Shown here: positions 207 to 38,733 of the stretch, one piece after another
Position numbering within the stretch: the stretch's first letter is position 1
Layout of the letters: each line of letters opens with the position of its first letter
UHGV virus genome: UHGV-0251828
Reading direction: 5' to 3' (one strand)
DNA from: a virus
Length of the DNA stretch: 39,579 nucleotides
The notes under the pieces: model-generated
Told to the model about the DNA's origin: nothing
What the model saw: the letters and a program-made list of their open reading frames with translations, nothing else
The model's database searches: none
Program-made: the position numbers and the translations under genes

Positions 207-221
207 TTACCTCAAGGGTAA
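207..221. promoter_or_regulatory. operator-family site TTACCTCAAGGGTAA overlapping a candidate promoter
   Basis: Perfect TTACC-N5-GGTAA; TTGCAG (179-184), 17-bp spacer, TACTAT (202-207) immediately upstream. Confidence 0.55.
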
Positions 222-281
222 ACGGATTGGTTTCATTTTTATTAATCCGTGTAATGAACTTATGAGATATGAGGTAATGTC

Positions 282-461
282 ATGCGAAACGAAAAATTGC
301 AGATGCGTAGAGCGCAAGCTGCCGCAAGACGTTCTTTCAATGGAAGCGTAGAGTGCGTAAAAGTTACTATGACAAAAGATCACGCAAGTCGCGTATCCCG
401 CGCTTTCTTTGATTCTCGTAACAATAAGGAAAATTATGAGTTCGTCTGCGTCGCAGAATGA
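282..461 (+). CDS. hypothetical 59-aa protein with Arg/Ala-rich N-terminus; overlaps next gene by 26 nt
   Basis: ATG with GAGGT Shine-Dalgarno 7 nt upstream; not in ORF track (<60 aa); hand-translated MRNEKLQMRRAQAAARRSF... Confidence 0.35.
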   Translation: MRNEKLQMRRAQAAARRSFNGSVECVKVTMTKDHASRVSRAFFDSRNNKENYEFVCVAE

Positions 462-981
462 TAAAAATCAAATTGTCAGATATAAGGGTCGAGTATTGCA
501 TACGCAAAATTTCTCGGCCCTTTGTGCATCTGATCTTGAGCTGAAGAAAGTATCTGATGCCTTTACCCAGTATTGGAAAACGGGATACCATCCATCTCTT
601 GGTAAAGATGCTGCATTTGCTCGTCCGACAGAAATGCTTAAACTAAATGTCAGGCATACTCATGTCGATAACCAAGACTATATTCCAGAAGATAGTGATA
701 AAAAACACACTGGTAAAAAATCATCTTGGGATGCATGGAAAAAAATAGCGTCTGTGCAAGTAAAATGCATACCAACAAGTAATTGCTTTTTAGTTTATTC
801 GGTAAATCACAATCGTGATGCGCTGGTTATGTTTTTTGTTGACGCAGATGCCCACAACATAACTGAGCAAGAAGAGTTTAAAGAGGCAGCAATCACTATC
901 AGTTATCAATTCTTTGAGAAAACAAAAACAGAACCAATGCCTTTAGAAGAAGATCTTTTTTCTGATAAATGGAAGGAATAA
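436..981 (+). CDS. AT-rich accessory protein, 181 aa; possible YafO-like toxin fold (from memory)
   Basis: ATG at 436 with AAGGA SD (track ORF 409..981 starts at an upstream TTG); motifs VRHTHVD and FLVYSV...DADAH; terminator directly downstream. Confidence 0.6.
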   Translation: MSSSASQNDKNQIVRYKGRVLHTQNFSALCASDLELKKVSDAFTQYWKTGYHPSLGKDAAFARPTEMLKLNVRHTHVDNQDYIPEDSDKKHTGKKSSWDAWKKIASVQVKCIPTSNCFLVYSVNHNRDALVMFFVDADAHNITEQEEFKEAAITISYQFFEKTKTEPMPLEEDLFSDKWKE

Positions 982-1003
982 GCCCGCGCCGCGGGCTTTT
1001 TTG
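981..1003 (+). terminator. intrinsic terminator
   Basis: GCCCG-CGC-CGGGC hairpin followed by TTTTTT. Confidence 0.7.
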
Positions 1004-1074
1004 TGGACGAAACAAAAGTCAGTGCTACACTCATTGACGCCACATTGAGGTGGATTATAGATGGAAATTTCACA

Positions 1075-1236
1075 ATGAAAAAAGCATTTGCTGCACTGTT
1101 CGTTTTGTTGTCTCTGGTAGCTTCAACTCAGGCCTTTGCCGGTCGTTGTCAGCACGACAGCGATACTGCCGCTGACGGCTCCCGCTGCGGTGGGCGTTCT
1201 GCGGATTCCCGCCCGGGTGGCGGTGGCATTCGTTAA
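1075..1236 (+). CDS. small secreted peptide (53 aa; predicted Sec signal peptide, ~31-aa mature part with 2 Cys)
   Basis: MKKAFAALFVLLSLVASTQAFA signal-peptide-like N-terminus within track ORF 1003..1236; TTGACG -35-like hexamer at 1034-1039; weak SD. Confidence 0.4.
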   Translation: MKKAFAALFVLLSLVASTQAFAGRCQHDSDTAADGSRCGGRSADSRPGGGGIR

Positions 1237-1259
1237 AAACAAGGCCGCGAAAGCGGCCT
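1235..1259 (-). terminator. intrinsic terminator ending the minus-strand virion operon
   Basis: GGCCGC-GAAA-GCGGCC hairpin; T-run on minus strand (A-run 1235-1241 on plus). Confidence 0.6.
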
Positions 1260-1271
1260 GTGACATGTCAC
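1260..1271. repeat. perfect 12-bp palindrome GTGACATGTCAC, copy 1 of 3
   Basis: Exact match; contains the stop codon of the 1268..1564 gene; abuts the terminator hairpin. Confidence 0.8.
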
Positions 1272-1564
1272 GTTCCTTTTCTGAATGATAGCCGTTCGAA
1301 AAATGATGACATTCCACCGCAGACAATAGCAAAGATGATCCCACCAAAGAAGAGAAGGCCAGCCTGCCACCACTCCCACCGCCATACATCCACAGCGCCA
1401 ATCATACCAACAATCGCTCCAACAAACGGAATATAACTCACGACAAAAGCAACGGGAGCTGCAATTACCCAGTGCAACCCCCACCATGATTCAAGCCCAG
1501 CCATAATTGCTGCCAACTGAAAAAGACCAACGACGATATAAACAATGAATCCTATAGCTTGCAT
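1268..1564 (-). CDS. small membrane protein (98 aa, about 3 predicted TM segments)
   Basis: Track ORF; ATG with AGGTGA SD; hydrophobic segments. Confidence 0.6.
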   Translation of the reverse strand: MQAIGFIVYIVVGLFQLAAIMAGLESWWGLHWVIAAPVAFVVSYIPFVGAIVGMIGAVDVWRWEWWQAGLLFFGGIIFAIVCGGMSSFFERLSFRKGT

Positions 1565-1576
1565 GTAGTCACCTAT

Positions 1577-1750: not shown

Positions 1751-1759
1751 AACACTTCC

Positions 1760-4234
1760 TTATTGCGGAGTGACATCCTGAGGTCGCCACCAGTATGTCT
1801 GGTTAAACTCTTTCTTCGAACGTTGCTCCATTTTACGCAAATAGCCTGGTGAAAAATACTCCTGCATCTGGTTAAAGATCATGTGATCGAGAGCCGCCTT
1901 CAAGTACCAGAGATTCGCACCAGGCATCAAACCTTTCCCCAGCTTCACCAGATCACCACCAGTCTGCTCACTCTTCCCTTCCACAGCATTTAACGGTATG
2001 CCCTGAGCAATCTTCACTACGTCATCAACCAGACCAGCTACCGGGCCAAGCATCGACGCCAGCGCGCCGCTTCCGTACCTAGTGTGATCTGACAATAAAA
2101 AGTCACCATAAAGGCCAAGACCACCACCTTTCAGTAGAGCACCAAGCCAGAATTTTGCGGCATCTTCTCCTGTCATCTCTCGAGGATTACGACCAGACGC
2201 AAGGTCGTTAAGTTGTTGCGACAAAGCGCCAAGAATGGTCGTACTGGCAATAAACGTCGCAATATATGCCGCACGCCCACCAGCAGACGGCATACCCATA
2301 GCGCGTGACCAGTGACGCATAACAACCGAGATAGGGAACGATTTAAACAGGAAAACACTTCTCGTTAATTCACCTTTCCATGTTCCACGCTGAATACCAG
2401 AACCGGTTATCAGTTGCTCACGTGCTCCCGGTGTAATAACAGCCATATCAACTTCTTCAGTTACGGCACCGAGCAGTTTACGCATTGCCTCAAATTTCAC
2501 GCGTTCAGGCTCACCAAGATGTTTAACTGCTGAATCAGGGATACGCATAATGCTTTCCGGTGTCAGCATCGTATTATTACCGTTCCCCCAGTCCTCCTGT
2601 TGCGCCAGCTTCCATACGCTCCAGTCTGTGTCAGTAATCCCTTTGCTTTTCAGGATACGAAAATCAGAGTCATCGAGGCTACGAAGGTCTGGTGTTCGTG
2701 ACACTACTTCTCCCAGGCTTCCCATCATGGTTACGCCATAGGCGCGCTTGTGCGCATCTGACCATGCTGTAAGCCCACTGGCACGCATTACCGCCGTTGC
2801 CGCCCAACGAGACACTGACGGCCCCATATTATCCATCGCCCAGCGGTTAACGCTGCCAAGTAGAGATTCCATCGCCAGACCAGCGCGGCGCGCCCGCGCA
2901 AGTTCTGTACGGTTCGTTGGGTCCATAGCTTCAAGCTGGTTGCGGAATAACTGGTTCATTGGAAGGTTGGTAACCTTCGCAGACAGATACATGGTTCCAA
3001 GATCAGAGAACGATGACAGCAACGCGGATCCGAGTCTGCTGGCAACCAGCCAGTTGCGGATATTGTCAGACCATCGCGCGATGTGCGGATTCGCTACAGG
3101 CTGTGTCTTTCCGGAAATAAAGTTGTACAGATTCTCTGTGTTGTTCGCCAGCCGCTCGACTTTACCGGTTTTACTCGGGTTAGCTGTTGCCGTTTCTGCC
3201 TTAACCTGATCAAGAAGGGAGCGGAAAACATGATCGGGGTTTGGACCATATGTTTCCACCAGTGCAATATCTTTACTGATACCTTCCAGGTGACCGACCA
3301 TGATTTCCCATAGAGAGCGATCGCCATAAAGTTGCTGATATTGCAGATAGGAATCTGCATCTTTGAAATGTATCTGTCGTGATGCATTACCACGGTTAGC
3401 ACGTGCGCCGGAAATTCGCATTCCGGTATCAGTAAGCTTATTCAGCCCACCAGTAGCGATCGTGTTATAAGCCTCTCCAAGAAATGCAGACAACTCGGCA
3501 TCGTTCATCAGTTGTCCATCGGCTCGGATATAATATTTGCGATCCAGCTTACCTATAACATCGCTAACCCACTTATCCTTTGATACCGCCCCAACCTTTT
3601 CCATAGAATGATGTTGAGGGATCCCCCAGTTTTCGAGATAGCCAATGTCCCCACCAGCATCATTAAACCTGCGGCGCAGTAGCTCTGTCACTTCTCTCCA
3701 CGCCTTAGCACCTTTTCTTGCTTTAGCATTGCCAGTATTTTGCCCCCGCATTTCATATACCAGGTCACGTACGCCCGCTTCATCTTCAAACAGACCAAAA
3801 AAGCGAGGATCAACTGCTTCGAATGCCTCCTGCAATTGACTCAATGCATAATCACGGGTGGCTTTTGTTCTGGATTCAACAGAGAGGAAATTCGATTTAC
3901 CGTCTGCATTAAAAGCAATAGTACGGTTAAGAGCGCCAAGTTTCCCATCAGCCCCTTGATAGCTATTGATAAATTTATCCAATCTCTGACGTGCGGCTAT
4001 AGTGAGGGCCACACGACGTTTCTTTAATGCCGCTTCTCGCTGTAATTCTTCAGATGCCAATTGTGCTGCACGATATAGCCGCTCTGATTCGGAAAGTTGT
4101 CTCCACGACATCGGGTCATCACGAGCAATGGAGCGCATATTTCGATAAATGCGGTCTTCAATGTTCTGTATTTCTCGCGCCGTTAACGTGCGCTGCGCCG
4201 CCTGCTGGACCGCTTGTATACATTCCTGTCTCAT
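1760..4234 (-). CDS. internal virion/ejection protein (T7 gp16-like position)
   Basis: 824-aa track ORF; GAGAGG SD; last large gene of the virion operon. Confidence 0.75.
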   Translation of the reverse strand: MRQECIQAVQQAAQRTLTAREIQNIEDRIYRNMRSIARDDPMSWRQLSESERLYRAAQLASEELQREAALKKRRVALTIAARQRLDKFINSYQGADGKLGALNRTIAFNADGKSNFLSVESRTKATRDYALSQLQEAFEAVDPRFFGLFEDEAGVRDLVYEMRGQNTGNAKARKGAKAWREVTELLRRRFNDAGGDIGYLENWGIPQHHSMEKVGAVSKDKWVSDVIGKLDRKYYIRADGQLMNDAELSAFLGEAYNTIATGGLNKLTDTGMRISGARANRGNASRQIHFKDADSYLQYQQLYGDRSLWEIMVGHLEGISKDIALVETYGPNPDHVFRSLLDQVKAETATANPSKTGKVERLANNTENLYNFISGKTQPVANPHIARWSDNIRNWLVASRLGSALLSSFSDLGTMYLSAKVTNLPMNQLFRNQLEAMDPTNRTELARARRAGLAMESLLGSVNRWAMDNMGPSVSRWAATAVMRASGLTAWSDAHKRAYGVTMMGSLGEVVSRTPDLRSLDDSDFRILKSKGITDTDWSVWKLAQQEDWGNGNNTMLTPESIMRIPDSAVKHLGEPERVKFEAMRKLLGAVTEEVDMAVITPGAREQLITGSGIQRGTWKGELTRSVFLFKSFPISVVMRHWSRAMGMPSAGGRAAYIATFIASTTILGALSQQLNDLASGRNPREMTGEDAAKFWLGALLKGGGLGLYGDFLLSDHTRYGSGALASMLGPVAGLVDDVVKIAQGIPLNAVEGKSEQTGGDLVKLGKGLMPGANLWYLKAALDHMIFNQMQEYFSPGYLRKMEQRSKKEFNQTYWWRPQDVTPQ

Positions 4235-4239
4235 TTAAT

Positions 4240-17732: not shown

Positions 17733-17822
17733 ATCAATGACTCCGTACGCAATTAAATTATTACCAATTTAACCACATATGATTTATTTATCGTAGGCAG
17801 TTGACATTTAACGAACAAATTA

Positions 17823-17837
17823 TTACCTTTTAGGTAA
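17823..17837. promoter_or_regulatory. operator-family site TTACCTTTTAGGTAA (perfect 15-bp palindrome) at a plus-strand promoter
   Basis: TTGACA at 17801-17806 upstream; transcription would run toward the tRNA. Confidence 0.55.
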
Positions 17838-18159: not shown

Positions 18160-18236
18160 GTGGCATTAGCTCAGTTGGACAGAGCAACCGCCTTCTAAGC
18201 GGTTGGTCGCAGGTTCGAATCCTGCATGCCACGCCA
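18160..18236 (+). tRNA. tRNA-Arg (anticodon TCT)
   Basis: Hand-folded cloverleaf: 7-bp acceptor GTGGCAT/ATGCCAC, D-stem GCTC/GAGC, anticodon stem ACCGC/GCGGT with loop CTTCTAA, T-stem GCAGG/CCTGC, T-loop TTCGAAT, encoded CCA. Confidence 0.9.
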
Positions 18237-18896: not shown

Positions 18897-20372
18897 TTAA
18901 GCATAGGGATCGTAATCTGTAATGGCCTTTCCTTGCTGGTTCTGCTGACCTAGAATTCGCAGACGCTTCGACACAGGGAACGCAAACGTCAGCAGTAGCG
19001 CATCGCCTTTACCAGGAGAACGCCCAAGCCGCTCCTTGATATCTTCCTTCGGTTCGATAACGATTTTACCGTCCACTCGAACTTTGTACTCTGCCGCAGA
19101 CAGGTCGTCCGCTGTTTCCTGGTCATCCAGCATGCCGCCCAGCCTCAGCCATGTCTTGCATGAGTTGAACATCTCCCCACGCTTGTTGAGCATCTGCGGG
19201 TCAGTAGACGCGCCACCGAACGGAACAAGTTGCCATGTACGACCCCAGCCATCACCGATTGACTTCAGACCAGTTCCGTAACCGAAGTCGATGAACACTG
19301 CGTCAGCCTGGTACTGGTCTTCAAAGTCAGCGATACGCTTCGCCATAATCAGATCGTCAGTGGTCTTGTTGCCAGTCCACAGCACCTTACTGTGCAGCCC
19401 CTGCCGCAGGTATATCACAGCGTCATCAACGCCGGAGTATGCCGGGTCAACGCCGATTATCACCGGAGCATGTGCAACCTGCGCAGCGGTTACCACCCGT
19501 TTCATTGCCTCGTCAGTAAGGCCGGTAGGGATAAACTGCAATTCAGATGCATCAGGAAATATGCCGCGCACACGGATTTTAACGAAGTCGCTGTCTTCCC
19601 CGTAGTCATCAACCCATTTCTGCAACTGCTGTTTGTTAGTACCTTCCACCGTCCGGCTGTCAATCTGCGCAGTTTTCCAGCGGTGTTTGTATTTGCGGAA
19701 ACATTCGCGAAAACGCCCGGTATTACGTGTAGGGTTTCCGAACGCCACCCAGATAATCTCAGTGTCTTCGTCCGTTAGCGCACCCTCGGCAACTTCCCAC
19801 ACCAGATCCGCAATGTTCGACGCTTCATCGAATACCACAATGATGCGTTTGCGCTCGTTGTGTAGTCCGGCGAATGCCTCAGTGTTGTGCTCAGACCAGG
19901 GGATTGCGTCAGCTCGCCACCGCTTGTCGTGTCCAGGATCATTGCTGTACATCGCGGTAGCGGTACAGGTAAACCAGTCTTTCGTGATAGCAAGGTTCGA
20001 CCACTTGATAATTTCCGGCCAGGTCTTCGTTCGTAGCTGGTTGTCGGTGTTGGCGGTCACCACAACCTTACAATCCTCGCAAGTGGACATGCCCCAGTTG
20101 ATCAGCATTGAGATGAATGCGGATTTACCAATACCGTGACCCGAAGCACGTGCCAGCATAAGCGGCTGATAGCGAGTCTCTGGATTCTGCAGGTGATCAC
20201 GTATCTCTCGGAACGCATCAGCCTGCCACTGACGTGGACCGGTGGCATGTGCCAGTTCAGTCCCATCTTCCCCCCACGGGAACGCATAGAGGGCATAGCC
20301 AAGCGGATCGTGAGTGAACCCTGCAATATCCTCGATCAACTGCTCTTCAGGAGATAACGCTGCATCTGTCAC
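18897..20372 (-). CDS. terL: terminase large subunit
   Basis: 491-aa track ORF; GTG start overlapping terS stop (GTGA); AGGATGG SD. Confidence 0.85.
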   Translation of the reverse strand: MTDAALSPEEQLIEDIAGFTHDPLGYALYAFPWGEDGTELAHATGPRQWQADAFREIRDHLQNPETRYQPLMLARASGHGIGKSAFISMLINWGMSTCEDCKVVVTANTDNQLRTKTWPEIIKWSNLAITKDWFTCTATAMYSNDPGHDKRWRADAIPWSEHNTEAFAGLHNERKRIIVVFDEASNIADLVWEVAEGALTDEDTEIIWVAFGNPTRNTGRFRECFRKYKHRWKTAQIDSRTVEGTNKQQLQKWVDDYGEDSDFVKIRVRGIFPDASELQFIPTGLTDEAMKRVVTAAQVAHAPVIIGVDPAYSGVDDAVIYLRQGLHSKVLWTGNKTTDDLIMAKRIADFEDQYQADAVFIDFGYGTGLKSIGDGWGRTWQLVPFGGASTDPQMLNKRGEMFNSCKTWLRLGGMLDDQETADDLSAAEYKVRVDGKIVIEPKEDIKERLGRSPGKGDALLLTFAFPVSKRLRILGQQNQQGKAITDYDPYA

Positions 20373-20962
20373 TGATTGCCATCCTGACGTTCTTTCAGTC
20401 TCTTCCTGGCTGCCGCTATGCGATCAGCAATTGTCACATTCACATTAACATCCAGGCGTTCTTTGAATGCATTGACATCGACGTGCTTACCAATCAGCTC
20501 AAGGTTCTTCACCTTGTCAGGCCATTTAATTTTTTTGAGGATTGTCTCTATCGAATCCTCGTTCATGTTCATGATGGTCGATGACAGATCAAAGCCGCTA
20601 AGCGTAGTGCGCCAGATTTTCGGCCACTCGCGGATTGGCTTAAGGCCCCCATCATCGTTGAGGATATCAATCACGTCCATCTGGTCGATCTCCACCAGGC
20701 GCATGAGAACGTAATCAGCACTGACACGCATTCGTTTGTTGCGCTCTTCCATCAGCTCGGCAATCCGTTTTTGAATGCGTTCATCGCGCATCATGACACT
20801 GGCTTTAACTGCCGCTGTATTTGGGGAGAATCCTGCGTTAATCGCTGCCTGAGTCTGGTTTTCAGGCGTTTTGATGTATGACTGGCAATAAGCCTCCTGC
20901 ATTGCTGTTAGTGGCTTAAATTGCGTTGATTTACGTTTATAGGTTTTAGGTTCAGCAGGCAT
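20369..20962 (-). CDS. terS: terminase small subunit (~197 aa)
   Basis: Track ORF 20369..21043 trimmed to ATG 20962 (GGTGG SD); the TTG-start extension would cover the upstream terminator. Confidence 0.65.
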   Translation of the reverse strand: MPAEPKTYKRKSTQFKPLTAMQEAYCQSYIKTPENQTQAAINAGFSPNTAAVKASVMMRDERIQKRIAELMEERNKRMRVSADYVLMRLVEIDQMDVIDILNDDGGLKPIREWPKIWRTTLSGFDLSSTIMNMNEDSIETILKKIKWPDKVKNLELIGKHVDVNAFKERLDVNVNVTIADRIAAARKRLKERQDGNQ

Positions 20963-21008
20963 CGTAACCACCGTGGTAATAGTTACCGTTGTGGTAATAG
21001 TACCATGC

Positions 21009-21034
21009 AAAATAAAGCCGCCATAGTTGGCGGC
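21009..21034 (-). terminator. intrinsic terminator between early region and terS (tR'-like position)
   Basis: GCCGCC-ATAGTT-GGCGGC hairpin followed on minus strand by TTTATTTT. Confidence 0.6.
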
Positions 21035-21075
21035 AGTATTCAAAACACATCAAATTCATCATGCATAATCTACTC

Positions 21076-21087
21076 GTGACATGTCAC
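21076..21087. repeat. perfect 12-bp palindrome GTGACATGTCAC, copy 3 of 3
   Basis: Exact match; contains the stop codon of the 21084..21422 gene; ~40 nt 5' of the terminator on the transcribed strand. Confidence 0.8.
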
Positions 21088-21422
21088 ACTATTAATTTCG
21101 TTTCATGCCAGCCTTTGGTCACCCAACATTGCGAGTCACCATTGCACGGGCATGAATTAACTGGAACTCTCTCGCCGCACTTACCGCAACGTTTTCTGCT
21201 GATCGATTTTATACGCCCGCGCACGCGTACATCATCCTGGCGGATCAGTAACGCTATATACTCACCAAATTCGTAAGGCGCACGCCCGGGGCGACGCGCG
21301 GCACAGTTACGCTCAAGCATTTCAATTTCCTGAGCATCAAGCACAATCTCCAGCTTACGCACACCAGATGCAGCTTGTCTGGCTCTCTGAGCGGCTTTGC
21401 GCTCTGCTGCTGATTTAGCCAT
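21084..21422 (-). CDS. Arg-rich N-terminus plus Cys-rich C-terminus protein (112 aa); candidate late-gene regulator
   Basis: Track ORF; AGGAAA SD; N-term AAERKAAQRARQAASG, C-term CGKCGERVPVNSCPCNGDSQC; last gene before terminator and terS. Confidence 0.6.
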   Translation of the reverse strand: MAKSAAERKAAQRARQAASGVRKLEIVLDAQEIEMLERNCAARRPGRAPYEFGEYIALLIRQDDVRVRGRIKSISRKRCGKCGERVPVNSCPCNGDSQCWVTKGWHETKLIV

Positions 21423-24896: not shown

Positions 24897-24911
24897 TTAC
24901 CCCTTAGGTAA
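24897..24911. promoter_or_regulatory. operator-family site TTACCCCTTAGGTAA at an internal minus-strand promoter
   Basis: Perfect half-sites; minus-strand TTGATT-N17-TTTAAT promoter-like hexamers immediately upstream. Confidence 0.5.
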
Positions 24912-24958
24912 TTAAAAACCACATAAGACACGAAATCAATAGATTTTAGAATATTTTA

Positions 24959-24973
24959 TTACCTCAAAGGTAA
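24959..24973. promoter_or_regulatory. operator-family site TTACCTCAAAGGTAA
   Basis: Perfect 15-bp palindrome 62 bp from the 24897 site (same spacing as the 27978/28040 pair). Confidence 0.5.
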
Positions 24974-26880: not shown

Positions 26881-26895
26881 TTACCTTTGAGGTAT
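26881..26895. promoter_or_regulatory. operator-family site TTACCTTTGAGGTAT (one mismatch)
   Basis: Between the Cro-like gene and the next early gene. Confidence 0.35.
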
Positions 26896-26950: not shown

Positions 26951-27181
26951 TCATGAGTAGAAGAAGTATGCCAGTTCTGCTTTTGAGCGCAGCCATTGTC
27001 TTGTTTTACAGGCTTTAAAAAGCCCATTCATCAATACCTTACCTGGCATTTTGCGCTTACCTGTTAAGTGAGTCTGGATATAGTGACTCGTCGTTCCGGC
27101 TTCCTGTGCGAAGGCTTCACGCTCATCCGGAGTAAGTGCAAGCCAGTGCTTTTTGAAATCGAAATGTCCGTTATCGCTCAT
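26951..27181 (-). CDS. Cro-like early regulator (76 aa)
   Basis: Divergent from the repressor gene across a three-operator region. Confidence 0.55.
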   Translation of the reverse strand: MSDNGHFDFKKHWLALTPDEREAFAQEAGTTSHYIQTHLTGKRKMPGKVLMNGLFKACKTRQWLRSKAELAYFFYS

Positions 27182-27217: not shown

Positions 27218-27280
27218 TCACCCATAAGGTAACAAAAATCAAGAATAGTTACCTATGAGGTGCATTTACCTGTTGGGTAA
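27218..27280. promoter_or_regulatory. right-operator region: three operator-family sites
   Basis: TCACCCATAAGGTAA (27218-27232), TTACCTATGAGGTGC (27249-27263), TTACCTGTTGGGTAA (27266-27280) between divergent Cro-like and repressor genes. Confidence 0.65.
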
Positions 27281-27335
27281 TATTGCTTTAAATTGAATCA
27301 TCTACTGATTCATATATGAGGCGATTTTCCAGAAA

Positions 27336-27920
27336 ATGAAAAGTATCCAGGACGTCCGCAGGCAAAATCTCAACGACTTGATCGACCGTGAATTCAATGG
27401 TGTTCAGACGCGGATGGCAGAAAAACTTGGAACTCAGGCAAATCTGGTAAACCGCTGGGCTCTTGGCAAGAAGGTTATCGGCGACCAGGTTGCGCGAAAA
27501 ATTGAAGCTGCCGCCAATAAACCCCGTAACTGGCTTGATATTGATCGTTCGCTTTCTCAGGAGGGTTTTCAGCCTGTCGGCCCGAGCGATATAGGTCAGC
27601 TGGCGGCTCACAACCTGGAACGCTGGATGAGCGAAAGCCGCGACCTTTCAACACAGGGAAAACTTCACCGCGCATCCGGCGTCGCCCAGGTGACAATCAG
27701 CCGTCTGTTAAACAATGAGGTCAGCGTTTCCATTTCCACCCTGGAGAATGTTGCATCCGCATTCGGGCGTCACGGATATGAATTACTGATTCACCCGCAC
27801 GACCCCGCGACTATCAACTATGACCGCTCGCGCTACGCATTGTTACCTGAAACAGAGAAGGCAAAGATCGAAAGTTACATTGAATTTGTCATCAACCAGA
27901 ACGAAAAAAGCAAACAATAA
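27336..27920 (+). CDS. prophage repressor with two XRE-type HTH-like segments and no recognisable S24 peptidase domain
   Basis: 194-aa track ORF; position divergent from cro; strong terminator downstream. Confidence 0.75.
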   Translation: MKSIQDVRRQNLNDLIDREFNGVQTRMAEKLGTQANLVNRWALGKKVIGDQVARKIEAAANKPRNWLDIDRSLSQEGFQPVGPSDIGQLAAHNLERWMSESRDLSTQGKLHRASGVAQVTISRLLNNEVSVSISTLENVASAFGRHGYELLIHPHDPATINYDRSRYALLPETEKAKIESYIEFVINQNEKSKQ

Positions 27921-27941
27921 AACTATAGTTTTCAGCAAGTA

Positions 27942-27967
27942 AGCCGCCTTCTGGCGGCTTTTTTATT
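27942..27967 (+). terminator. intrinsic terminator after repressor gene
   Basis: AGCCGCC-TTCT-GGCGGCT hairpin followed by TTTTTATT. Confidence 0.7.
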
Positions 27968-27977
27968 GCCAGACAGA

Positions 27978-27992
27978 TTACCTTATGGGTAA
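27978..27992. promoter_or_regulatory. left-operator site TTACCTTATGGGTAA
   Basis: Perfect half-sites, upstream of TTGACA at 28012-28017. Confidence 0.6.
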
Positions 27993-28039
27993 TTTTTTTA
28001 ACTCATATCTATTGACATCAAACCAGATACGCATAATTA

Positions 28040-28054
28040 TTACCTCAACGGTAA
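28040..28054. promoter_or_regulatory. left-operator site TTACCTCAACGGTAA overlapping the early-left promoter
   Basis: Perfect half-sites; TTGACA (28012-28017) with 17-bp spacer to an AATTAT -10-like element. Confidence 0.6.
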
Positions 28055-28228: not shown

Positions 28229-28528
28229 ATGAACGTTAATCAGCAGAAAAATCTTCAAAAAATCATGCTGGCATTCGACAAGGACTACCGCCTGTCAGAA
28301 CAGCTATATGACCGACAAGTTGAACTGATTGAGAGTATCCGGCTTCATCAACTGGCCTCAACTTTCGATGTTGTAACAGGCAAAGGCGTTCGTCAGGAAG
28401 TGCTGGAGGCTGCTAAAGACAGCCCTGAGTTCGAAGAACTGATGGATGCCTACCGGCGCGAGGCAATGGCAATTATCGCCCGCTGGGATCTGGCGGATCA
28501 GCTTGATGGACAGAGGGACGCGGCATGA
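28229..28528 (+). CDS. hypothetical protein (~99 aa) directly upstream of exonuclease
   Basis: ATG at 28229 with GGGAGG SD (track ORF starts at 28214). Confidence 0.55.
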   Translation: MNVNQQKNLQKIMLAFDKDYRLSEQLYDRQVELIESIRLHQLASTFDVVTGKGVRQEVLEAAKDSPEFEELMDAYRREAMAIIARWDLADQLDGQRDAA

Positions 28529-29346
28529 ATCCGGGAATTTATTTCGATATCAGCAACGAAGACTACCACGCCGGTGACGGCGTGAGTAAGTCGCAACTGG
28601 ACATGGTTGCCAAGAATCCGGCGCTTCTTAAATGGGTTCAGGCAGCACCAGAAGACGAAGAGAAAAAGTCTGCACTGGATATGGGAACCGCATTGCACTG
28701 TCTGCTTCTGGAGCCTGGAGAGTTCGACAAACGCTTCATTGTTTCACCGAAATTCGATCGTCGGACGAAACAAGGTAAAGCTGACGAAGAGGCATTTCTT
28801 CGTGATGTGGCGGATATGGGGATTACGGTACTTGATGCCGAGCAGTGGCGGAAACTGGAGCTGATGCGTGATAGCGCAATGGCTCACCCGGCGGCACGCT
28901 GGATGCTGGAAGCACCTGGTTACTGCGAAGCATCAATGTACTGGAACGATGAAGAGACGGGTGAGTTGTGCCGAATTCGTCCAGACAAATGGCTAAACGA
29001 GCACAACGTGATCGTCGACGTGAAAAAGGTTGCAGATATGGACCGTTTTGCACGCCACATCGAGGAATTCCGCTACCACGTGCAGGACGCAATGTACCGC
29101 GAAGGCGCAATGAGGGTTACTGGTCAGCCACATGGTTTTTTCTTTCTTGCCGTGAGCGAAAGCATTGATTGTGGTCGGTATCCGGTACGCGTGTTCGGGC
29201 TGGATGCGCCAGATGTCGATGCCGGGCACGCTCTGTTCCGCCGGGATCTGAATACCTATCACGAATGCCGCATCAACGATGAATGGGGCGGAGTGGAAAT
29301 CATTAAACGCCCTGACTGGGCACGTAAACAGGATATGTACGTATGA
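28525..29346 (+). CDS. recombination exonuclease (YqaJ/lambda-Exo-like PD-(D/E)XK)
   Basis: 273-aa track ORF; ATGA coupling to RecT-like gene; motif IVDVKKV. Confidence 0.75.
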   Translation: MNPGIYFDISNEDYHAGDGVSKSQLDMVAKNPALLKWVQAAPEDEEKKSALDMGTALHCLLLEPGEFDKRFIVSPKFDRRTKQGKADEEAFLRDVADMGITVLDAEQWRKLELMRDSAMAHPAARWMLEAPGYCEASMYWNDEETGELCRIRPDKWLNEHNVIVDVKKVADMDRFARHIEEFRYHVQDAMYREGAMRVTGQPHGFFFLAVSESIDCGRYPVRVFGLDAPDVDAGHALFRRDLNTYHECRINDEWGGVEIIKRPDWARKQDMYV

Positions 29347-30224
29347 GCAATGATATCGCAATCACATCACAACCAGGCGCAACTGTAGGCACTGCTGCGG
29401 CAATCTTCAGCCCCGAGGGCATGAATCAACTGGTGCGTTTCGCGGAGTTGATGTCACAAAGCAAAGCGACTGTACCGAAACATCTTGAAGGCAAACCTGC
29501 CGATTGCCTGGCGGTGACCATGCAGGCGGCACAGTGGGGAATGAACCCGTTCGCCGTGGCGCAGAAAACGCATGTGGTAAACGGGACGTTAGGCTACGAA
29601 GCACAGTTGGTAAACGCGGTCGTATCCTCTTCCAGCCTGCTGGCGACACGCCTGAATTATCGCTGGAGCGGTGACTGGTCGAATGTTAACGGCAAAACAG
29701 ATAAATCACCGAATCTGACGGTAACTGTGTCAGCAGTTCTTAAAGGAGAAGCAGAACCCCGTGAGCTTACCATCAGTATGGCGCAAGCCGGAGTGCGTAA
29801 CTCTCCATTGTGGGAACAGGATCCGCGCCAGCAGCTTGCCTATCTTTGCACGAAACGATGGGCTCGCCTGCACGCTCCTGATGTACTTCTCGGTGTTTAC
29901 ACCCCTGACGAATTACAGGAAACGGCACCGCGCGTTGAGCGAGACATTACTCCGCAAACGACTACTGCTGCGGGAATGAACAGTCTGATCAACGCTAAAC
30001 CAGTGAAAAAGCCTGATGAGCAAACGCGTAAAGCGGATAGCCGTGAACCAGAAGAAATGCTGATGGCCTTTACCAGCGCAGCGATGAATTACAGCACTGT
30101 CTCCGAACTGGATAAGGCTTACAAATACATTGCACAAAAACTTTCAGATGATGACGAACTGCTGGCAAAAGCCACCGACGTTTACAGCGTTCGTCGGGAA
30201 GAATTAAACGAAACATCTATGTAA
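29343..30224 (+). CDS. recT: RecT-family single-strand annealing protein
   Basis: 293-aa track ORF paired with exonuclease. Confidence 0.75.
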   Translation: MSNDIAITSQPGATVGTAAAIFSPEGMNQLVRFAELMSQSKATVPKHLEGKPADCLAVTMQAAQWGMNPFAVAQKTHVVNGTLGYEAQLVNAVVSSSSLLATRLNYRWSGDWSNVNGKTDKSPNLTVTVSAVLKGEAEPRELTISMAQAGVRNSPLWEQDPRQQLAYLCTKRWARLHAPDVLLGVYTPDELQETAPRVERDITPQTTTAAGMNSLINAKPVKKPDEQTRKADSREPEEMLMAFTSAAMNYSTVSELDKAYKYIAQKLSDDDELLAKATDVYSVRREELNETSM

Positions 30225-30273
30225 CCACCACCGCGGCGCCACGTGTGCCGCACTGCAACCAAGAGAGGTATTT

Positions 30274-30522
30274 ATGAAAGGTGCATTAGATAAGAAGAAA
30301 CTCCTGGCGGTGGTGCCACTGTCATGGAGCACTATCGACCGTATGGAGCGCGCAGGGGAATTTCCTAAACGCTGGTATATCACTGACAAACGCTGCGCAT
30401 GGAACCGTGACGAAGTTGAGCGTTGGCTTGATGAACGTCAGGCAGCAAGCCCGGCAGAGTTCCAGGGTAAAAAGCCTCCTGTTCAGCAACGTGTATATCG
30501 TCCTGTGAGCAACGCTGCATGA
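30274..30522 (+). CDS. AlpA-family HTH DNA-binding protein (possible excisionase/regulator)
   Basis: 82-aa track ORF; GAGAGG SD. Confidence 0.6.
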   Translation: MKGALDKKKLLAVVPLSWSTIDRMERAGEFPKRWYITDKRCAWNRDEVERWLDERQAASPAEFQGKKPPVQQRVYRPVSNAA

Positions 30523-30631
30523 GTGTGCTTCTAAGGCACTGGAGCAAATGGTCAGGATGGTACTTATTCCTGGCCTCTGTTTCAGCATGGCTTTATCTGC
30601 TGGCATTAATTTTCAGAGAGGGTTGGATTAA

Positions 30632-30931
30632 GTGAGAAAGTTAAGCCGACTTGAAAAATATCACATGAACAAGGTTTCAATGCGCAGTCCGTCAAAGATT
30701 GTCGCCGTTACTCCTGCGGCGATAGAGATCGAAAAACGCGCGATTGAAAGAGAGAAAAAAGGGCAGTTCCGCATTGCCGCTCACCTTTGGCTTCAGTGTA
30801 TGGATGTTGCTTCTGGTGATGTTGAACGTGCAAGGATCGCGGTTCGCAGGGACCAATGTATCACAAAAGGTAACGGCCTTCGCCGTGGCGACTATAGCGG
30901 CATAGGATGTTGCGGGGTGGTTTATGACTAA
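30632..30931 (+). CDS. PerC-like putative transcriptional activator (tentative); start uncertain
   Basis: Track ORF with GTG start; alternative ATG at 30665; motif KGQFRIAAHLW. Confidence 0.4.
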   Translation: MRKLSRLEKYHMNKVSMRSPSKIVAVTPAAIEIEKRAIEREKKGQFRIAAHLWLQCMDVASGDVERARIAVRRDQCITKGNGLRRGDYSGIGCCGVVYD

Positions 30932-31574
30932 GAAATACACGCTAATCTATGCAGATCCACCATGGGTATACCGGGACAAAGCCGCAGATGGTAATCGCGG
31001 TGCCGGTTTTAAATATCCAGTTATGAGTGTGCTGGATATCTGCCGCCTTCCTGTGTGGGATTTGGCCGCTGAAAACTGTCTGTTGGCCATGTGGTGGGTG
31101 CCAACACAACCACTCGAAGCACTAAAAGTTGTTGAAGCCTGGGGATTTCGTCTTATGACCATGAAGGGCTTCACGTGGATAAAATGTGGTAGTCGACAAC
31201 CAGATAAACTGGTTATGGGTATGGGACACATGACTCGCGCCAATAGTGAAGATTGCCTGTTTGCGGTAAAGGGAAAACTACCTCCGCGCATTAATGCAGG
31301 GATCGTTCAGTCATTTACCGCACCGCGGCTTGAGCACTCAAGAAAACCAGATGTCGTTCGTGAAAAACTTGTGCAATTGTTAGGCGATGTTTCTCGCATT
31401 GAACTGTTCGCCCGCCAGTCGTCTCATGGCTTCGATGTTTGGGGTAATCAGTGTGAAGACCCGGCAGTGCAACTACACCCTGGATACGCGTTGGATATTG
31501 CCAGATTAACAAATGCATTCAGCAATGCTCCGCTGTCACCAACAGACAACCAGGGGCGGGAGCGTGCAGCATGA
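30924..31574 (+). CDS. MT-A70-family N6-adenine DNA methyltransferase (orphan)
   Basis: N-terminal IYADPPW motif; 216-aa track ORF; no adjacent restriction gene. Confidence 0.8.
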   Translation: MTKKYTLIYADPPWVYRDKAADGNRGAGFKYPVMSVLDICRLPVWDLAAENCLLAMWWVPTQPLEALKVVEAWGFRLMTMKGFTWIKCGSRQPDKLVMGMGHMTRANSEDCLFAVKGKLPPRINAGIVQSFTAPRLEHSRKPDVVREKLVQLLGDVSRIELFARQSSHGFDVWGNQCEDPAVQLHPGYALDIARLTNAFSNAPLSPTDNQGRERAA

Positions 31575-33019: not shown

Positions 33020-33061
33020 AATTCACCCGTATAGAAACCATTTTCATGACGGTATGAGAGT

Positions 33062-33076
33062 ATACCTTTAAGGTAA
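33062..33076. promoter_or_regulatory. operator-like site ATACCTTTAAGGTAA upstream of int
   Basis: One mismatch to TTACC-N5-GGTAA. Confidence 0.35.
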
Positions 33077-33130
33077 TACCGTCACCTGTACCGCCGAAAA
33101 ATATGGTGTAGAGTGAATAGAAATGAATAC

Positions 33131-34735: not shown

Positions 34736-35126
34736 CGTCTTTTCTCCCCGGAATTAACTCGCGTGGATTATCGGAACGGTGGTAGAGCCATATACCAATA
34801 CGCACAGCAACAATTGCTGACACGAATGCGCCAGCAGAGAAAACAATCCCTTTTTCAAAAGAGTCCTGCGTGATAGTAGGGATCAGGCTGGCTATGCCGA
34901 TAAGAATTGATGCTGCTGGTTTATAAAAAAGAAGGCCGCAGAGAAAGCTAAGCATCGATAAGAGTACGCGACGATGAATTGGGTACTCTACCGCAGAGGT
35001 AACAAAAATTACCGCACCAGCCAAAGACCCTAAAGCAACCTCAGGAGGAACTCCTGCTATAACCGCAGCAAGAGAACTCATGCTAAGCCATTGATTTAAA
35101 GATTCACTGGTTAGTTGAGCTGACAT
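34722..35126 (-). CDS. holin-like membrane protein (~134 aa); start uncertain
   Basis: Track ORF 34722..35159; ATG candidates at 35126 and 35138; 3-4 hydrophobic segments and charged C-terminus. Confidence 0.5.
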   Translation of the reverse strand: MSAQLTSESLNQWLSMSSLAAVIAGVPPEVALGSLAGAVIFVTSAVEYPIHRRVLLSMLSFLCGLLFYKPAASILIGIASLIPTITQDSFEKGIVFSAGAFVSAIVAVRIGIWLYHRSDNPRELIPGRKDDGNA

Positions 35127-35383
35127 AATGTGCACCATATTTTGTATATACAGATCCACTTAAACTGTCAGCTAATTATACACAACAAACCATATAAGAA
35201 TAATTATTACTCAATATTATTCTTGATTATTCGTATTTATCCGGTGCGCCGTAAAAACCAGTTCTTCTTGGCGTAGAGGATGTCAAGAGAATTAAATGAT
35301 AATTACATTGTTGATAAGTGGCGTCCTTGCCGTGGTAATTACTAAACTTATGATTTCTCCGCCATGCCTGATATGGAAAATAA

Positions 35384-38233
35384 TTACTTATTTTTTTCCA
35401 TTGGTTCAGCCTTATTGAGTTGTTCCTTAAGCTTATTCCATGCTGAATCCTCAGGCATCTGTACTCGCACAGAAACGAACTGATTAGCAGGAATGTCGAT
35501 CGGGTCACCGTTCGAAACACCAGGGATGTCGTTACGTGCAAAAACTGGCGAGTTATCATGAGTGCGGTGAAACGTTTTCACCAACACAGAGCCATCTTGG
35601 TTAACAACATAATCCAGCCAGATGAGCGGCTGCTTGTTTCGGTCCTGCGGTATTTCAAATCCACCATCAATCCCCCCCCATGAAGCATCTGCATTCAGAC
35701 CTACGCAACCCTCAATCAGATATTCCCCCAATGCCAGCCGTGTGACGGTTACCCCATCTGATTCGCGATTTGTTTCACTACTACCGTCTGAGAAAATCTT
35801 CACAACCGGAGAGGCTTTTTTGATGAAACCACTTGAATCGACGGTCGTGTTCAGCGACGACCATGCCTCAGCCCAGCCTGTGTTACCTGCGCGAATAGCA
35901 TCGTCTGCGTAGCGGAAGAACAGTTTTGATGTTGTGGACATGAATATCTGCAACACACGGTTTTTTGCATATCCTGACTCCCATAATGCTCCGTTACCTG
36001 TTCCTTCTGGCTGCCAGTTTGTCACCCCACCTGCAGCTCCTACACTTACACCAGTAGACCAGTCTCCAGCAAATTCTGGAAGATTTAGTGAGTTAGGTGA
36101 GCGAATTGATACATCAACCAGACCAGGGGATCCGAGAATCGACATGCTGCGGGAGGACACCTTAGTAAAAGAGTTGTACCCGCCGTTTTTGGAAATCCTT
36201 CCTGTATAATTATTAGCCCTGTTAGTTCCATTAACTGTAATTTCCCAGGTATCGCCGTTGATGAAGTCGATCTGCAATAGGCAGAATGCTGGCAGCGTCA
36301 TCTGTCCTGGCGCAGATGGCCCACCTTCAAACAGTGGCATATCCTGTTCAAGATATGTCACATATCTACCTGCATCTGTATTCCGCAAATAGTCACAAAT
36401 AGCCTGTGCCGATGTAAATAGCGCAATACCATCAGCCGGGTTTACAGGGTGACGGCCAGCGTTAATCACCCTTCCGCGAGGGTTAAATAACTGTGATGAG
36501 GCATTGGATAGCGGAGTCATGTCTACTGTTCCAGGTTCATTAGATGGACAGTTAGCGCGAATGATGTTTAAAGTCCTATAATTTGATCCGCCCCCATTGT
36601 CATAGCGAATAGACTGTAGAAGATACAATTCCTCAGAGCCAGAAATATCACAAGACTGCACCCCCTCATTTTCAGTGGAGTAAACACTCTTCCCTGAATA
36701 ACTATCCCAGTATGTTTTGAAATCTGCAGGTGACAGCAGGTACTGACCTAATTCTGAACCATTAAGGCTGTACTCAATATAACCCTGCAACCCTGCGAAA
36801 GTATTTCCAGATCCCGCCGTGGTAGATGCACCAATACCAGCAAATATCCGTTGAGAACCAAGAGCGACACCCTGCCGTTTTGGTTTACCGGCTCCGCGAC
36901 CTCCAACATTTGCATCAACCGTAATAGTCCCCATTGGACTGTAAGATCCTTCTATAAGGCTGTTAATATCCAGTGTGTTAAAGATATTGGATACACCTGT
37001 CTCAACATCAAAAATTTTCGGCCAACCCATATCCGCATTTTCGTATATCAGGGTATTACCAAAGCCACTAAACTGATATCGCACTCCAAGGCGTGTTGAT
37101 TCAGTGAAGTTTGTAATCTGCGTTTTATCAACCAGCGTACGCGGATCTTCGATAGGGTAAATTCTGATAGTGCGAGATGGGCTGTACGGCAGCAGGATGT
37201 AACGCTGTCCTGCCACTCGGTAAACGTGGATGCCTTCTGGTGCACCAACGTTATTCGGAAAATGAAGACGTGTTACCAATGCTCCTGTTACCCAGTCATG
37301 CACCGTAACCCATACCGATGCGGGGTCTAGCGTCTGCCAGCCGATGTATACCATTCCATCATTGCTGTCTATGTAAATCCCCTGAAATCCCATGGTCGTG
37401 TAACCATACTGATCTTTAAGATCTGCGGTAATCTCATCGTCTATGATGCTGAATTCTAATTTCCAGTTCAGCGGCCTACGCGTACCACTGACATGCCTGG
37501 AAATATGAGACAGGTAGCTTTTTTTCCCTCCGGCCAAAATGTAACGCGAGGTTATTTCTGTCACTATGCCGACTGCAGCAGGAGTAACACGATAAACAGC
37601 CCCATTAATCCTGACAAAGTTTGAAATGGTTTTTATCTCATACCCGACAGACATGTCCAAGCGAGAGCTGTCATATTTGCCATTAGCGAGATCTGTAACA
37701 TACATTGCGTTGTCGATGTTATCAGGCCTAACTACCCCACTATATAAGTCTTGCACATATTTTTTTGTTACAGCATCCTGAGAGTTCTTCGGATCGGCCA
37801 AATTGGAAATTCTGTTTTGCTTTGCATCGTAATATTTTGCAAGCAAAGATGGTTTCATCAATGCACGTCTGAACCACCCAAAACATCGCTGGATCAGCAT
37901 CGTCAGGTAGTCAAATGCATCTTCATGAACTTCGGGGAAAAATTTTCCCTGATTGCGAAGATCAGTCTCCTGCACCACATCAAGCACACGCTCTATCGTG
38001 ATTCGCCAGCCAGCAGCAAGCGGCGACGGAAGAACCACTGCACCGCCACTATAAGTTCCCGCCCCTGTTACTGTATAACCAGCATCCAGCACTAGTTCTG
38101 TTACGTTACCGTTAAGGTCAGACACCTGAACAACCAGGTCGGATTTTTTGAAAATACGGAAGGTATACGGAAATGATGTCGTAACGCCGTTACCTGTGTA
38201 TTCGTTGTGGTCAACTTCGGTTGAGACCGTCAT
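35384..38233 (-). CDS. tailspike protein
   Basis: 949-aa track ORF; GGAG SD; Ser/Gly/Asn-rich central region. Confidence 0.85.
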   Translation of the reverse strand: MTVSTEVDHNEYTGNGVTTSFPYTFRIFKKSDLVVQVSDLNGNVTELVLDAGYTVTGAGTYSGGAVVLPSPLAAGWRITIERVLDVVQETDLRNQGKFFPEVHEDAFDYLTMLIQRCFGWFRRALMKPSLLAKYYDAKQNRISNLADPKNSQDAVTKKYVQDLYSGVVRPDNIDNAMYVTDLANGKYDSSRLDMSVGYEIKTISNFVRINGAVYRVTPAAVGIVTEITSRYILAGGKKSYLSHISRHVSGTRRPLNWKLEFSIIDDEITADLKDQYGYTTMGFQGIYIDSNDGMVYIGWQTLDPASVWVTVHDWVTGALVTRLHFPNNVGAPEGIHVYRVAGQRYILLPYSPSRTIRIYPIEDPRTLVDKTQITNFTESTRLGVRYQFSGFGNTLIYENADMGWPKIFDVETGVSNIFNTLDINSLIEGSYSPMGTITVDANVGGRGAGKPKRQGVALGSQRIFAGIGASTTAGSGNTFAGLQGYIEYSLNGSELGQYLLSPADFKTYWDSYSGKSVYSTENEGVQSCDISGSEELYLLQSIRYDNGGGSNYRTLNIIRANCPSNEPGTVDMTPLSNASSQLFNPRGRVINAGRHPVNPADGIALFTSAQAICDYLRNTDAGRYVTYLEQDMPLFEGGPSAPGQMTLPAFCLLQIDFINGDTWEITVNGTNRANNYTGRISKNGGYNSFTKVSSRSMSILGSPGLVDVSIRSPNSLNLPEFAGDWSTGVSVGAAGGVTNWQPEGTGNGALWESGYAKNRVLQIFMSTTSKLFFRYADDAIRAGNTGWAEAWSSLNTTVDSSGFIKKASPVVKIFSDGSSETNRESDGVTVTRLALGEYLIEGCVGLNADASWGGIDGGFEIPQDRNKQPLIWLDYVVNQDGSVLVKTFHRTHDNSPVFARNDIPGVSNGDPIDIPANQFVSVRVQMPEDSAWNKLKEQLNKAEPMEKNK

Positions 38234-38318
38234 GTTAAATCTCCAGATAGTCGCAGCACCCGTTGCGCCGCATATCTGGTTATTCTATTACCTGAAAAAC
38301 CACATATGGATAGAAAGA

Positions 38319-38334
38319 CTGTGAATATGAACAG
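38319..38334. promoter_or_regulatory. LexA (SOS) box-like CTGTGAATATGAACAG
   Basis: Fits CTGT-N8-ACAG with AT-rich centre. Confidence 0.55.
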
Positions 38335-38337
38335 ATA

Positions 38338-38352
38338 TTACCTTTCGGGTAA
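38338..38352. promoter_or_regulatory. operator-family site TTACCTTTCGGGTAA between two LexA boxes
   Basis: Perfect half-sites. Confidence 0.55.
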
Positions 38353-38391
38353 TTTGCAAAACGTGCTGGATAGCAAACAAATTATTTGATA

Positions 38392-38407
38392 CTGTATAAA
38401 TATACAG
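38392..38407. promoter_or_regulatory. LexA (SOS) box CTGTATAAATATACAG
   Basis: Near-consensus CTGT-N8-ACAG palindrome 23 bp upstream of the 38415 ATG; TTGATA just 5'. Confidence 0.7.
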
Positions 38408-38429
38408 TTATTGCATGGAGAAGATTAAG

Positions 38430-38687
38430 ATGCAGCAGTATCACTATCCACTGGAAGACGGATTTACCGAAAGGATTCACACGCCGGGAGGCGTCAGGTC
38501 ACTGGTGGAAGGATCGCACTTGATGAAATTACTCCGGGATCTCGATAAGGATGGATTTAATGTCGATGGCCCACTTGCCGAACTGACTGCACTGATTAAC
38601 TACGTCACCAGCTCACAGATGTCTATGCGGGATCTGCAAACACATCTCGACTATTGTGCCGAACAATTACGAAAACAAACCAGATAA
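38430..38687 (+). CDS. SOS-regulated small protein (~85 aa), candidate small antirepressor
   Basis: ATG at 38430 with GGAG SD (track ORF starts at 38415). Confidence 0.5.
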   Translation: MQQYHYPLEDGFTERIHTPGGVRSLVEGSHLMKLLRDLDKDGFNVDGPLAELTALINYVTSSQMSMRDLQTHLDYCAEQLRKQTR

Positions 38688-38718
38688 GGTTTGCAATTAC
38701 CAAGTGGAGTGCTTATAT

Positions 38719-38733
38719 TTACCTTTGCGGTAA
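38719..38733. promoter_or_regulatory. operator-family site TTACCTTTGCGGTAA
   Basis: Perfect half-sites between the small SOS gene and the Bro-N gene. Confidence 0.55.

Follow-up and report, generated by a model that had tools for sequence, protein, structure and literature searches.

TTACC-N5-GGTAA palindromes as probable operators of the prophage repressor across the genome of a phiV10-like Uetakevirus

How far from its own gene does a prophage repressor act? The question is raised by the genome of virus UHGV-0251828, in which copies of a palindrome, TTACC-N5-GGTAA, flank the repressor gene (rep) and recur between many other genes. Here we report a computational analysis of the whole stretch of 39,579 bp (the window), which is a circular permutation of the complete genome of a temperate, phiV10-like podophage (genus Uetakevirus), with 97–98% identity to phages phiV10, HEMP4, ZX5, PAS61 and the Escherichia coli O157 typing phages 9 and 10. 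The palindrome very probably serves as the operator for Rep, the Uetakevirus prophage repressor, which would directly silence nearly every transcription unit of the phage; this assignment is based on homology, position and conservation in sequence data. It agrees with a preliminary description of the same DNA, which had proposed a repressor operator used far beyond the immunity region and which is supported by the homology of Rep, the annotation of phage epsilon15, the conservation of the sites and their positions on core promoter elements.

The window contains 10 perfect copies of TTACC-N5-GGTAA, compared with 0.01 expected from dinucleotide shuffles of the whole window and 0.0025 from shuffles of the intergenic segments alone. 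Nine of them had been described before; the tenth, at position 20983, had been missed together with a weak neighbour at 20965. A mismatch scan recovered the four imperfect copies that had also been described, at 26881, 27218 and 33062 (one mismatch each) and at 27249 (two mismatches), and with 20965 (one mismatch) the family comprises five imperfect and 15 total members (Table 1). All 15 lie in the non-coding DNA of a curated gene map (2,876 nt, 7.3% of the genome), and the earlier statement that the sites are exclusively intergenic thus extends to the enlarged family. The leftover degenerate matches (two with one mismatch, 24 with two) are mostly located in coding DNA and agree in number with an order-3 Markov background (1.7 and 19, respectively); the coding matches, among them those at 34988, 38106 and 27057, were rejected as operators because they are consistent with chance. 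The conserved bases form a perfect palindrome, and the N5 centre differs from genome to genome. The extended consensus TTACCT-N3-AGGTAA had also been suggested; T occupies position 6 in 18 of the 30 half-sites, which lends this form weak support, and the centre varies between genomes. The A/T flank that generates the 17-bp form of epsilon15, ATTACC-N5-GGTAAT, is about as strong as the T at position 6.

The protein encoded by rep matches the Repressor of Salmonella phage SPC32H (PDB 5D50_A) over its full length (residues 1–190, E 3.5e-42), and its residues 89–190 match the crystallised tetramerisation/Ant-binding domain (5D4Z; E 3.6e-20). Pfam assigned only helix-turn-helix (HTH) families to Rep, including HTH_3, and detected no S24 or self-cleavage peptidase domain. 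Judged by this homology, Rep is an SPC32H-type repressor without autocleavage, presumably a tetramer that pairs its N-terminal HTH domains on palindromes. According to secondary open-access sources, SPC32H Rep is tetrameric, recognises palindromes in DNA and loses its activity through Ant. The Rep of phage ZX5 is 99.5% identical to that of the window, and its overexpression lowered the transcript levels of endolysin and holin by over 99.9% (PMC9782041). Identity to the epsilon15/SPC32H-type Rep is 43% overall. The recognition helix nevertheless has N36, R40 and W41 in all of 19 Rep homologues, and the helix pattern N-L/V-V/I-N/S-R-W is kept across all of them at overall identities down to 42%.

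The second component of an SPC32H-type switch, the small antirepressor Ant, is encoded next to the tail-fibre gene, as in the SPC32H/epsilon15-type switch. A LexA box appears to overlap the promoter of ant, as judged from consensus hexamers. A further LexA-box-like sequence, CTGTGAATATGAACAG (38319–38334, plus strand), is located directly upstream of the operator at 38338; among the aligned genomes, phiV10 included, only the window has it. The gene of a Cro-like early regulator is divergent from rep, across a region that contains three operators.

Table 1. Positions of the operator family and of associated genes and RNAs in the window. Promoter elements and functions are predictions.
Feature	Coordinates	Strand	Remark
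Accessory-cassette operator, perfect	207..221		begins at last -10 base of TTGCAG-17-TACTAT (179-207)
gp3/p03 operator, perfect	17823..17837		in divergent gap flanked by leftward gp3 (head/tail operon) and rightward p03/tRNA-Arg
Weak copy, one mismatch	20965..20979		18 bp from 20983; on terS ribosome-binding site (GGTGG)
terS operator, perfect	20983..20997		between terminator of the p55 gene and probable terS start; adjoins -10-like TACTAT
nin-type proximal operator, perfect	24897..24911		on -10 (TTTAAT, 24916-24911)
nin-type distal operator, perfect	24959..24973		past terminator; 19 nt upstream of -35 TTGATT (24939-24934)
Replication-promoter operator, one mismatch	26881..26895		past cro terminator (26929-26910)
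Cro-like early regulator, homologue of phiV10 p41	26951..27181	-	phrog_35 'transcriptional repressor', E 5.6e-13
OR-a, TCACCCATAAGGTAA, one mismatch	27218..27232		fills spacer of leftward cro promoter
OR-b, TTACCTATGAGGTGC, two mismatches	27249..27263		on weak -35 region of candidate rep promoter
OR-c, TTACCTGTTGGGTAA, perfect	27266..27280		right end makes -10-like TAATAT (27277-27282) facing rep
Rep, prophage repressor	27336..27920	+	N-terminal HTH DNA-binding domain; C-terminal HTH-like tetramerisation/Ant-binding domain
OL-distal, perfect	27978..27992		17 nt past rep terminator (27941-27960)
OL-proximal, perfect	28040..28054		begins at last base of -10 (AATTAT, 28035-28040)
Operator-like site, one mismatch (GGTAT on int strand)	33062..33076		42 nt upstream of int; least secure member
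Tail-fibre/ant operator, perfect	38338..38352		intergenic; 30 nt upstream of leftward tail-fibre late-type box
LexA box, CTGTATAAATATACAG	38392..38407	+	on -10 (TACTGT) of ant promoter; conserved in 6 genomes
Ant, small antirepressor inactivating Rep	38415..38687	+	PDB 5D50_E 'Anti-repressor protein', E 1.6e-46
Bro-N module operator, perfect	38719..38733		begins at last -10 base of TTGCAA-17-TATATT (38691-38719)
isrK Hfq-binding RNA	38770-38846	+	Rfam, 67 bits
C4 antisense RNA	38871-38954	+	Rfam, 66 bits (gathering threshold 45)
Bro-N antirepressor gene, 236 amino acids	39003..39579 joined to 1..134	+	crosses window junction; upstream of site 207

The positions of the sites relative to consensus promoter elements were compared in alignments of six intergenic regions from six genomes, to which invariance of operator regions refers below. 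In these regions, the half-sites, the -35 element (TATTGA) and the spacing are invariant, and the five central bases are free. The leftward cro promoter predicted from consensus elements (-35 TTGATT, 27242–27237; -10 GAATAT, 27219–27214) encloses OR-a, whose half-sites are invariant together with the AATCAA of the -35 element. OR-b follows at a spacing of 31 bp and OR-c after another 17 bp; the TTACC...GGT of OR-b with its spacing and the GGTAATATT of OR-c are likewise invariant. On the other side of rep, OL-distal is located 19 nt upstream of the -35 element TTGACA of the early-left promoter, and OL-proximal covers the predicted transcription start of the p39-recE-recT-alpA-perC-dam operon. 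These two sites are exactly 62 bp apart; the distance, the sequence TATTGAC and both operators are invariant.

The same arrangement recurs at the nin-type promoter, where the two operators are again exactly 62 bp apart with invariant spacing and half-sites, and where the proximal one includes the ribosome-binding site and stops 3 nt short of the ATG (24893) of a DUF1064 gene. In both cases, a pair of sites separated by approximately six helical turns brackets a promoter, with the distal site 19 nt 5' of the -35 element and the proximal site starting from the last base of the -10 element; paired sites in helical phase suggest cooperative binding. The promoter of the replication genes (p42-dnaT-P) has otherwise the same layout, with the operator at 26881 located 17 nt upstream of the -35 element (TTGATC, 26863–26858) and a lone TTACC-type half-site past the -10 element at the proximal position; ACC-N5-GGTAAT, GGTTGATCTTTT and AAAAT are invariant in this region.

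Further sites precede genes far from rep. The perfect copy at 20983 corresponds to an annotated repressor-binding site of epsilon15 (12..27). The long terS annotation of phiV10 (window 20962–21043; phiV10 record 41–106) starts upstream of a rho-independent terminator and of two operator copies. With a terminator inside the annotated 'N-terminus', an in-frame stop after the intervening ATG, and short starts in epsilon15 and ZX5, the true start is probably the ATG at 20962, which yields a protein of 197 amino acids as in the latter two phages, and the sites at 20983 and 20965 are consequently intergenic. The left half of the weak copy at 20965 is not conserved in epsilon15 or SPC32H; it is doubtful as an operator and probably represents the terS ribosome-binding region instead.

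The operator at 17823 is located 16 nt downstream of a rightward -35 element (TTGACA, 17801–17806) and 42 nt upstream of a leftward late-type box (TATRTGGTT; see below), and its epsilon15 counterpart (2931..2947) is annotated as repressor-binding. It had been attributed to a tRNA island. There is an operator at this position, but it is kept genus-wide with or without the tRNA, between the p03/tRNA promoter and the gp3 operon. The tRNA-Arg gene (anticodon TCT; 18160–18236, plus strand) is found downstream of the operator-bearing rightward promoter (17801–17837); it recurs in some relatives (SPC32H, typing phage 9) but not in epsilon15. The operator at 38338 is situated about 15 nt upstream of the -35 element of the LexA-controlled ant promoter, and its counterpart in epsilon15 (19895..19911) is also annotated as repressor-binding.

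At three other promoters (terS, Bro-N module and accessory cassette), the operator adjoins a -10-like hexamer, and at the latter two (38719 and 207) a distance of 22 nt between -35 element and operator recurs. The predicted promoter at 38719 drives isrK, the C4 antisense RNA and the Bro-N gene; sites homologous to 38719 are present in phiV10 (20497), Tyrion (21393), a Klebsiella relative (17377) and ZX5 (2043). Given this module besides Ant, the phage has two antirepressor systems. The Bro-N gene crosses the end and start of the window, which identifies the latter as a circular permutation of the whole genome; the alignment with TL-2011b runs unbroken through this junction, and the minus strand of the window corresponds to the plus strand of phiV10. 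The gene is overlooked by open-reading-frame lists that disregard the junction. The predicted promoter at 207 drives an accessory cassette (282..1236, plus strand) that is common to TL-2011b and converges on the end of the late operon. It comprises orf59 (282..461; phrog_6685), a YafO-like protein of 190 amino acids (409..981) and a small signal-peptide protein of 77 amino acids (1003..1236; phrog_14503, membrane-associated moron). The YafO-like protein scores 23.2 bits with Pfam YafO_toxin, below the curated cut-off of 25 bits; a firm toxin assignment was therefore rejected, and 'toxin-like' stays tentative. In ZX5, an analogous operator (978) precedes a different accessory cargo.

Overall, the phage is organised in many short, terminator-insulated transcription units, nearly all of which restart at a predicted promoter with one operator or a pair. 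The 15 sites are distributed over approximately 11 of approximately 14 inferred units, and in four of these (after rep, cro, the replication genes and p55) the order is terminator, operator, promoter.

Part of this operator family has been annotated before. The GenBank record of epsilon15 (AY150271.2) contains seven 'protein_bind: repressor' features with the sequence ATTACC-N5-GGTAAT, which in two is shortened to the 16-bp form TTACC-N5-GGTAAT, located before terS, before gp3, between ant and the tailspike gene, beside rep (three features at OL) and at the nin-type promoter. The window sites at 20983, 17823, 38338, 27978/28040 and 24959 are homologous to these annotations. Records of phiV10-type phages carry no operator annotation and list only terminators, and text searches of the literature for the motif returned nothing relevant. 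The paper describing the epsilon15 genome reportedly gives the consensus ATTACCWDWWNGGTAAT.

Each of eight related genomes, which stem from E. coli, Salmonella, Enterobacter and Klebsiella, contains 8–11 perfect copies, and four prophage fragments of Superficieibacter, Pseudescherichia, Pseudocitrobacter and Serratia contain 5–7 copies each. Half-sites, positions and spacing remain invariant although the identity of Rep falls to 42–53%; the nearly invariant recognition helix explains the unchanged motif. The sites also track the structure of the transcription units: phiV10 and epsilon15 have a divergent O-antigen gene between the tail-fibre and lysis genes and an extra site with it, whereas the window has neither, and a Serratia prophage has an inserted ParB-like gene with extra sites before it. 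The sole relative with a different recognition helix that was found, a Paraburkholderia protein related to the N-terminal domain, has a different C-terminal domain as well, and its genome lacks the motif (weak evidence).

If Rep reads the motif at every site, it would occlude RNA polymerase in a lysogen at the early-left, cro, replication, nin-type, terS and p03/tRNA units, likewise at the accessory cassette and the isrK-C4-Bro-N antirepressor module, and would regulate its own gene at the three-site OR. Upon DNA damage, LexA would leave the ant promoter and Ant would be made; Ant would then disassemble Rep and release all units together, and the second antirepressor, whose unit is among them, would lock in the decision. 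We tentatively extend this scheme to a reading in which Rep acts not as an immunity-region switch but as a silencer of the whole genome, clamping each insulated unit, among them the accessory-gene promoters, the packaging operon and the second antirepressor, through a single operator or a tetramer-read 62-bp pair, and in which inserted cassettes gain an operator-bearing promoter. This reading is possible but on balance unlikely.

Several observations weigh against Rep as the silencer of nearly all units. Both the motif and the recognition helix of Rep are essentially invariant in every relative found, and covariation therefore cannot tie the motif to Rep as opposed to, for example, the Cro-like p41. 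Several of the promoters are guesses from consensus elements, and a promoter scan gave overall no more hits than in shuffled sequences. The sites at 17823 and 38338 are off the core of the late-type promoters that they precede (42 and 30 nt upstream, respectively), and a single tetramer bridging two sites 62 bp apart would require sharp DNA bending. In the window, the late-type box of the lysis cassette lacks an operator; the preliminary description went too far in placing sites at all accessory promoters, although accessory sites do exist. Finally, the site at 33062 may belong to the integrase arm of attP.

The last point bears on the composition of the family. The site at 33062 adjoins the integrase arm-type site GTGACGGTAT and its inverted copy, which form a flanking inverted pair (33040–33100). 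The epsilon15 record annotates GTGACGGTAT four times as an integrase site (26651, 26873, 27108 and 27198) and, at the counterpart of 33062, lists binding of 'integrase' and not of repressor. The mismatch GGTAT is invariant. Since the site abuts integrase arm sites and has a conserved mismatch, it is doubtful as a member: the motif-like site reported upstream of int is present, but it may not be a Rep operator. The arm repeat and the operator half-site have the sequence GGTA in common. The family may thus be mixed, with the sites flanking rep and those at the nin-type, replication and accessory promoters being Rep operators, 33062 an integrase or excisionase arm of attP, and 20965, with its non-conserved left half, part of the terS ribosome-binding region; we consider such a mixture a serious possibility, only slightly short of probable. 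On the other hand, neither the TTACC nor the N5 spacing of 33062 changes in any of the genomes, its score is near those of accepted sites, and an operator controlling int beside attP would be biologically sensible.

Two alternatives concern the reader of the motif. The sites might be read mainly by the Cro-like protein or by the p55/gp49 regulator (21084..21422), and would then time lytic expression rather than silence the prophage. The Cro-like protein is encoded opposite rep across the three-site region and matches a transcriptional repressor family, Cro and repressor use common operators in classical switches, and conservation alone does not separate Rep from other proteins that occur genus-wide. 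However, the epsilon15 annotation names the repressor as the binder, homologues of Rep are documented to bind palindromic sites, and operators upstream of the -35 element, in the spacer and on the transcription start are typical of repression; if a Cro-like protein also used the sites, the Rep model would be extended and not replaced. We regard this alternative as unlikely. Far more improbable still is a host factor, with the antitoxin MqsA as the leading candidate, which would couple the prophage promoters to host stress. The MqsA palindrome is AACCT-N3-AGGTT (PMC4894380), and five of the 15 sites (17823, 24959, 26881, 27249 and 33062) contain ACCT-N3-AGGT. Yet the invariant bases are TTACC/GGTAA rather than AACCT/AGGTT, the flanking A/T of MqsA is found in none of the 15 sites, position 6 is T in little more than half of the half-sites (18/30) and the centre is free across genomes. 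The motif is also kept just as well by phages of Salmonella, Klebsiella, Enterobacter and Serratia, and its clustering in a 3+2 arrangement around rep points to a phage-encoded reader. MqsA was rejected on the basis of the invariant bases and the host range of the motif. Rep remains the favoured reader, and we infer that it occupies the sites.

The Rep-Ant-LexA switch of epsilon15 and SPC32H is the closest known system. It resembles that of the window in the homology of Rep and Ant, in the LexA box on the ant promoter and in palindromes at like positions. Compared with epsilon15, the window has extra operators at the isrK-C4-Bro-N module (38719) and the accessory cassette (207), promoters that epsilon15 lacks, and is without the site before the lysis cassette. 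An operator family with annotations in epsilon15 and a link to a repressor of known structure is a known design. Possibly new features are the invariant 62-bp bracket, the layout of nearly one operator per unit, and the presumed operators on accessory and second-antirepressor promoters.

In phage P1, the operators of the C1 repressor are asymmetric 17-mers dispersed over the genome, and the immI region encodes the c4 antisense RNA, icd and ant. The window is similar to P1 in having one primary repressor with scattered operators (15 sites) at many separate operons and, as in immI, an operator-bearing promoter that leads to a C4-family antisense RNA and an antirepressor gene, presumably under the control of Rep. 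It differs in that its sites are palindromic and apparently read by an HTH_3 protein homologous to 5D50; family searches of the window proteins revealed no homology to P1 C1. The stoperators of mycobacteriophage L5, which are bound by gp71, number dozens; they are asymmetric, have a common orientation, occur inside transcribed regions and act by blocking elongation. They share with the window sites the spread over the whole prophage beyond the immunity region, whereas the window sites are symmetric, all intergenic, and located on or beside promoter elements. In lambda, CI acts at a tripartite OR and OL with cooperative binding or looping. As in that system, three operators lie between the divergent rep and cro-like genes and more beyond rep. 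Unlike lambda, Rep lacks a domain for RecA-dependent self-cleavage, the promoter is bracketed by an OL of two sites at a spacing of 62 bp, and the operators are not confined to OL and OR, with ten sites outside the flanks of rep.

The results provide a near-complete operator map for phiV10-type phages of E. coli O157 and a correction of the terS start of phiV10. They predict that the YafO-like cassette, the tRNA/p03 unit and the Bro-N antirepressor stay off in lysogens and are turned on only after inactivation of Rep by Ant, which is relevant for engineering such phages as reporters and for judging the value of accessory genes to the host. If the whole-genome silencer reading is true, the accessory genes would serve lytic-phase functions and not lysogenic conversion; if it is also not yet shown experimentally, the genus would offer a compact model of prophage control that is free of antitermination. 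No genes for N- or Q-type antitermination were noted in the window. The invariant 62-bp pair amounts to a concrete prediction of how an SPC32H-type tetramer, which might bridge the two sites, engages DNA.

A second motif, TATRTGGTT, occurs four times in the window compared with 0.58 expected (17771–17779, 24917–24925, 35188–35196 and 38298–38306, all on the minus strand). Every copy is intergenic and is found on the strand used for rightward/late transcription, and in three of the four (before gp3, the lysis cassette and the tail-fibre gene) a -10-like hexamer follows 7 nt on. The motif is invariant in phiV10, Tyrion, the Klebsiella relative, epsilon15 and SPC32H. These copies are candidate late promoters and perhaps depend on the p55/gp49 regulator.

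Two differences in gene content or annotation were observed in addition. The region between the tail-fibre and lysis genes of the window (35127–35383) lacks an O-antigen acetylase or conversion gene, which is present at this location in phiV10 (oac), epsilon15, SPC32H and Tyrion. RecE-like exonuclease and RecT each have a gene of their own (28525..30224, plus strand), as in epsilon15 and ZX5, whereas the phiV10 record (29722–31482) is annotated with one fused RecE-RecT gene.

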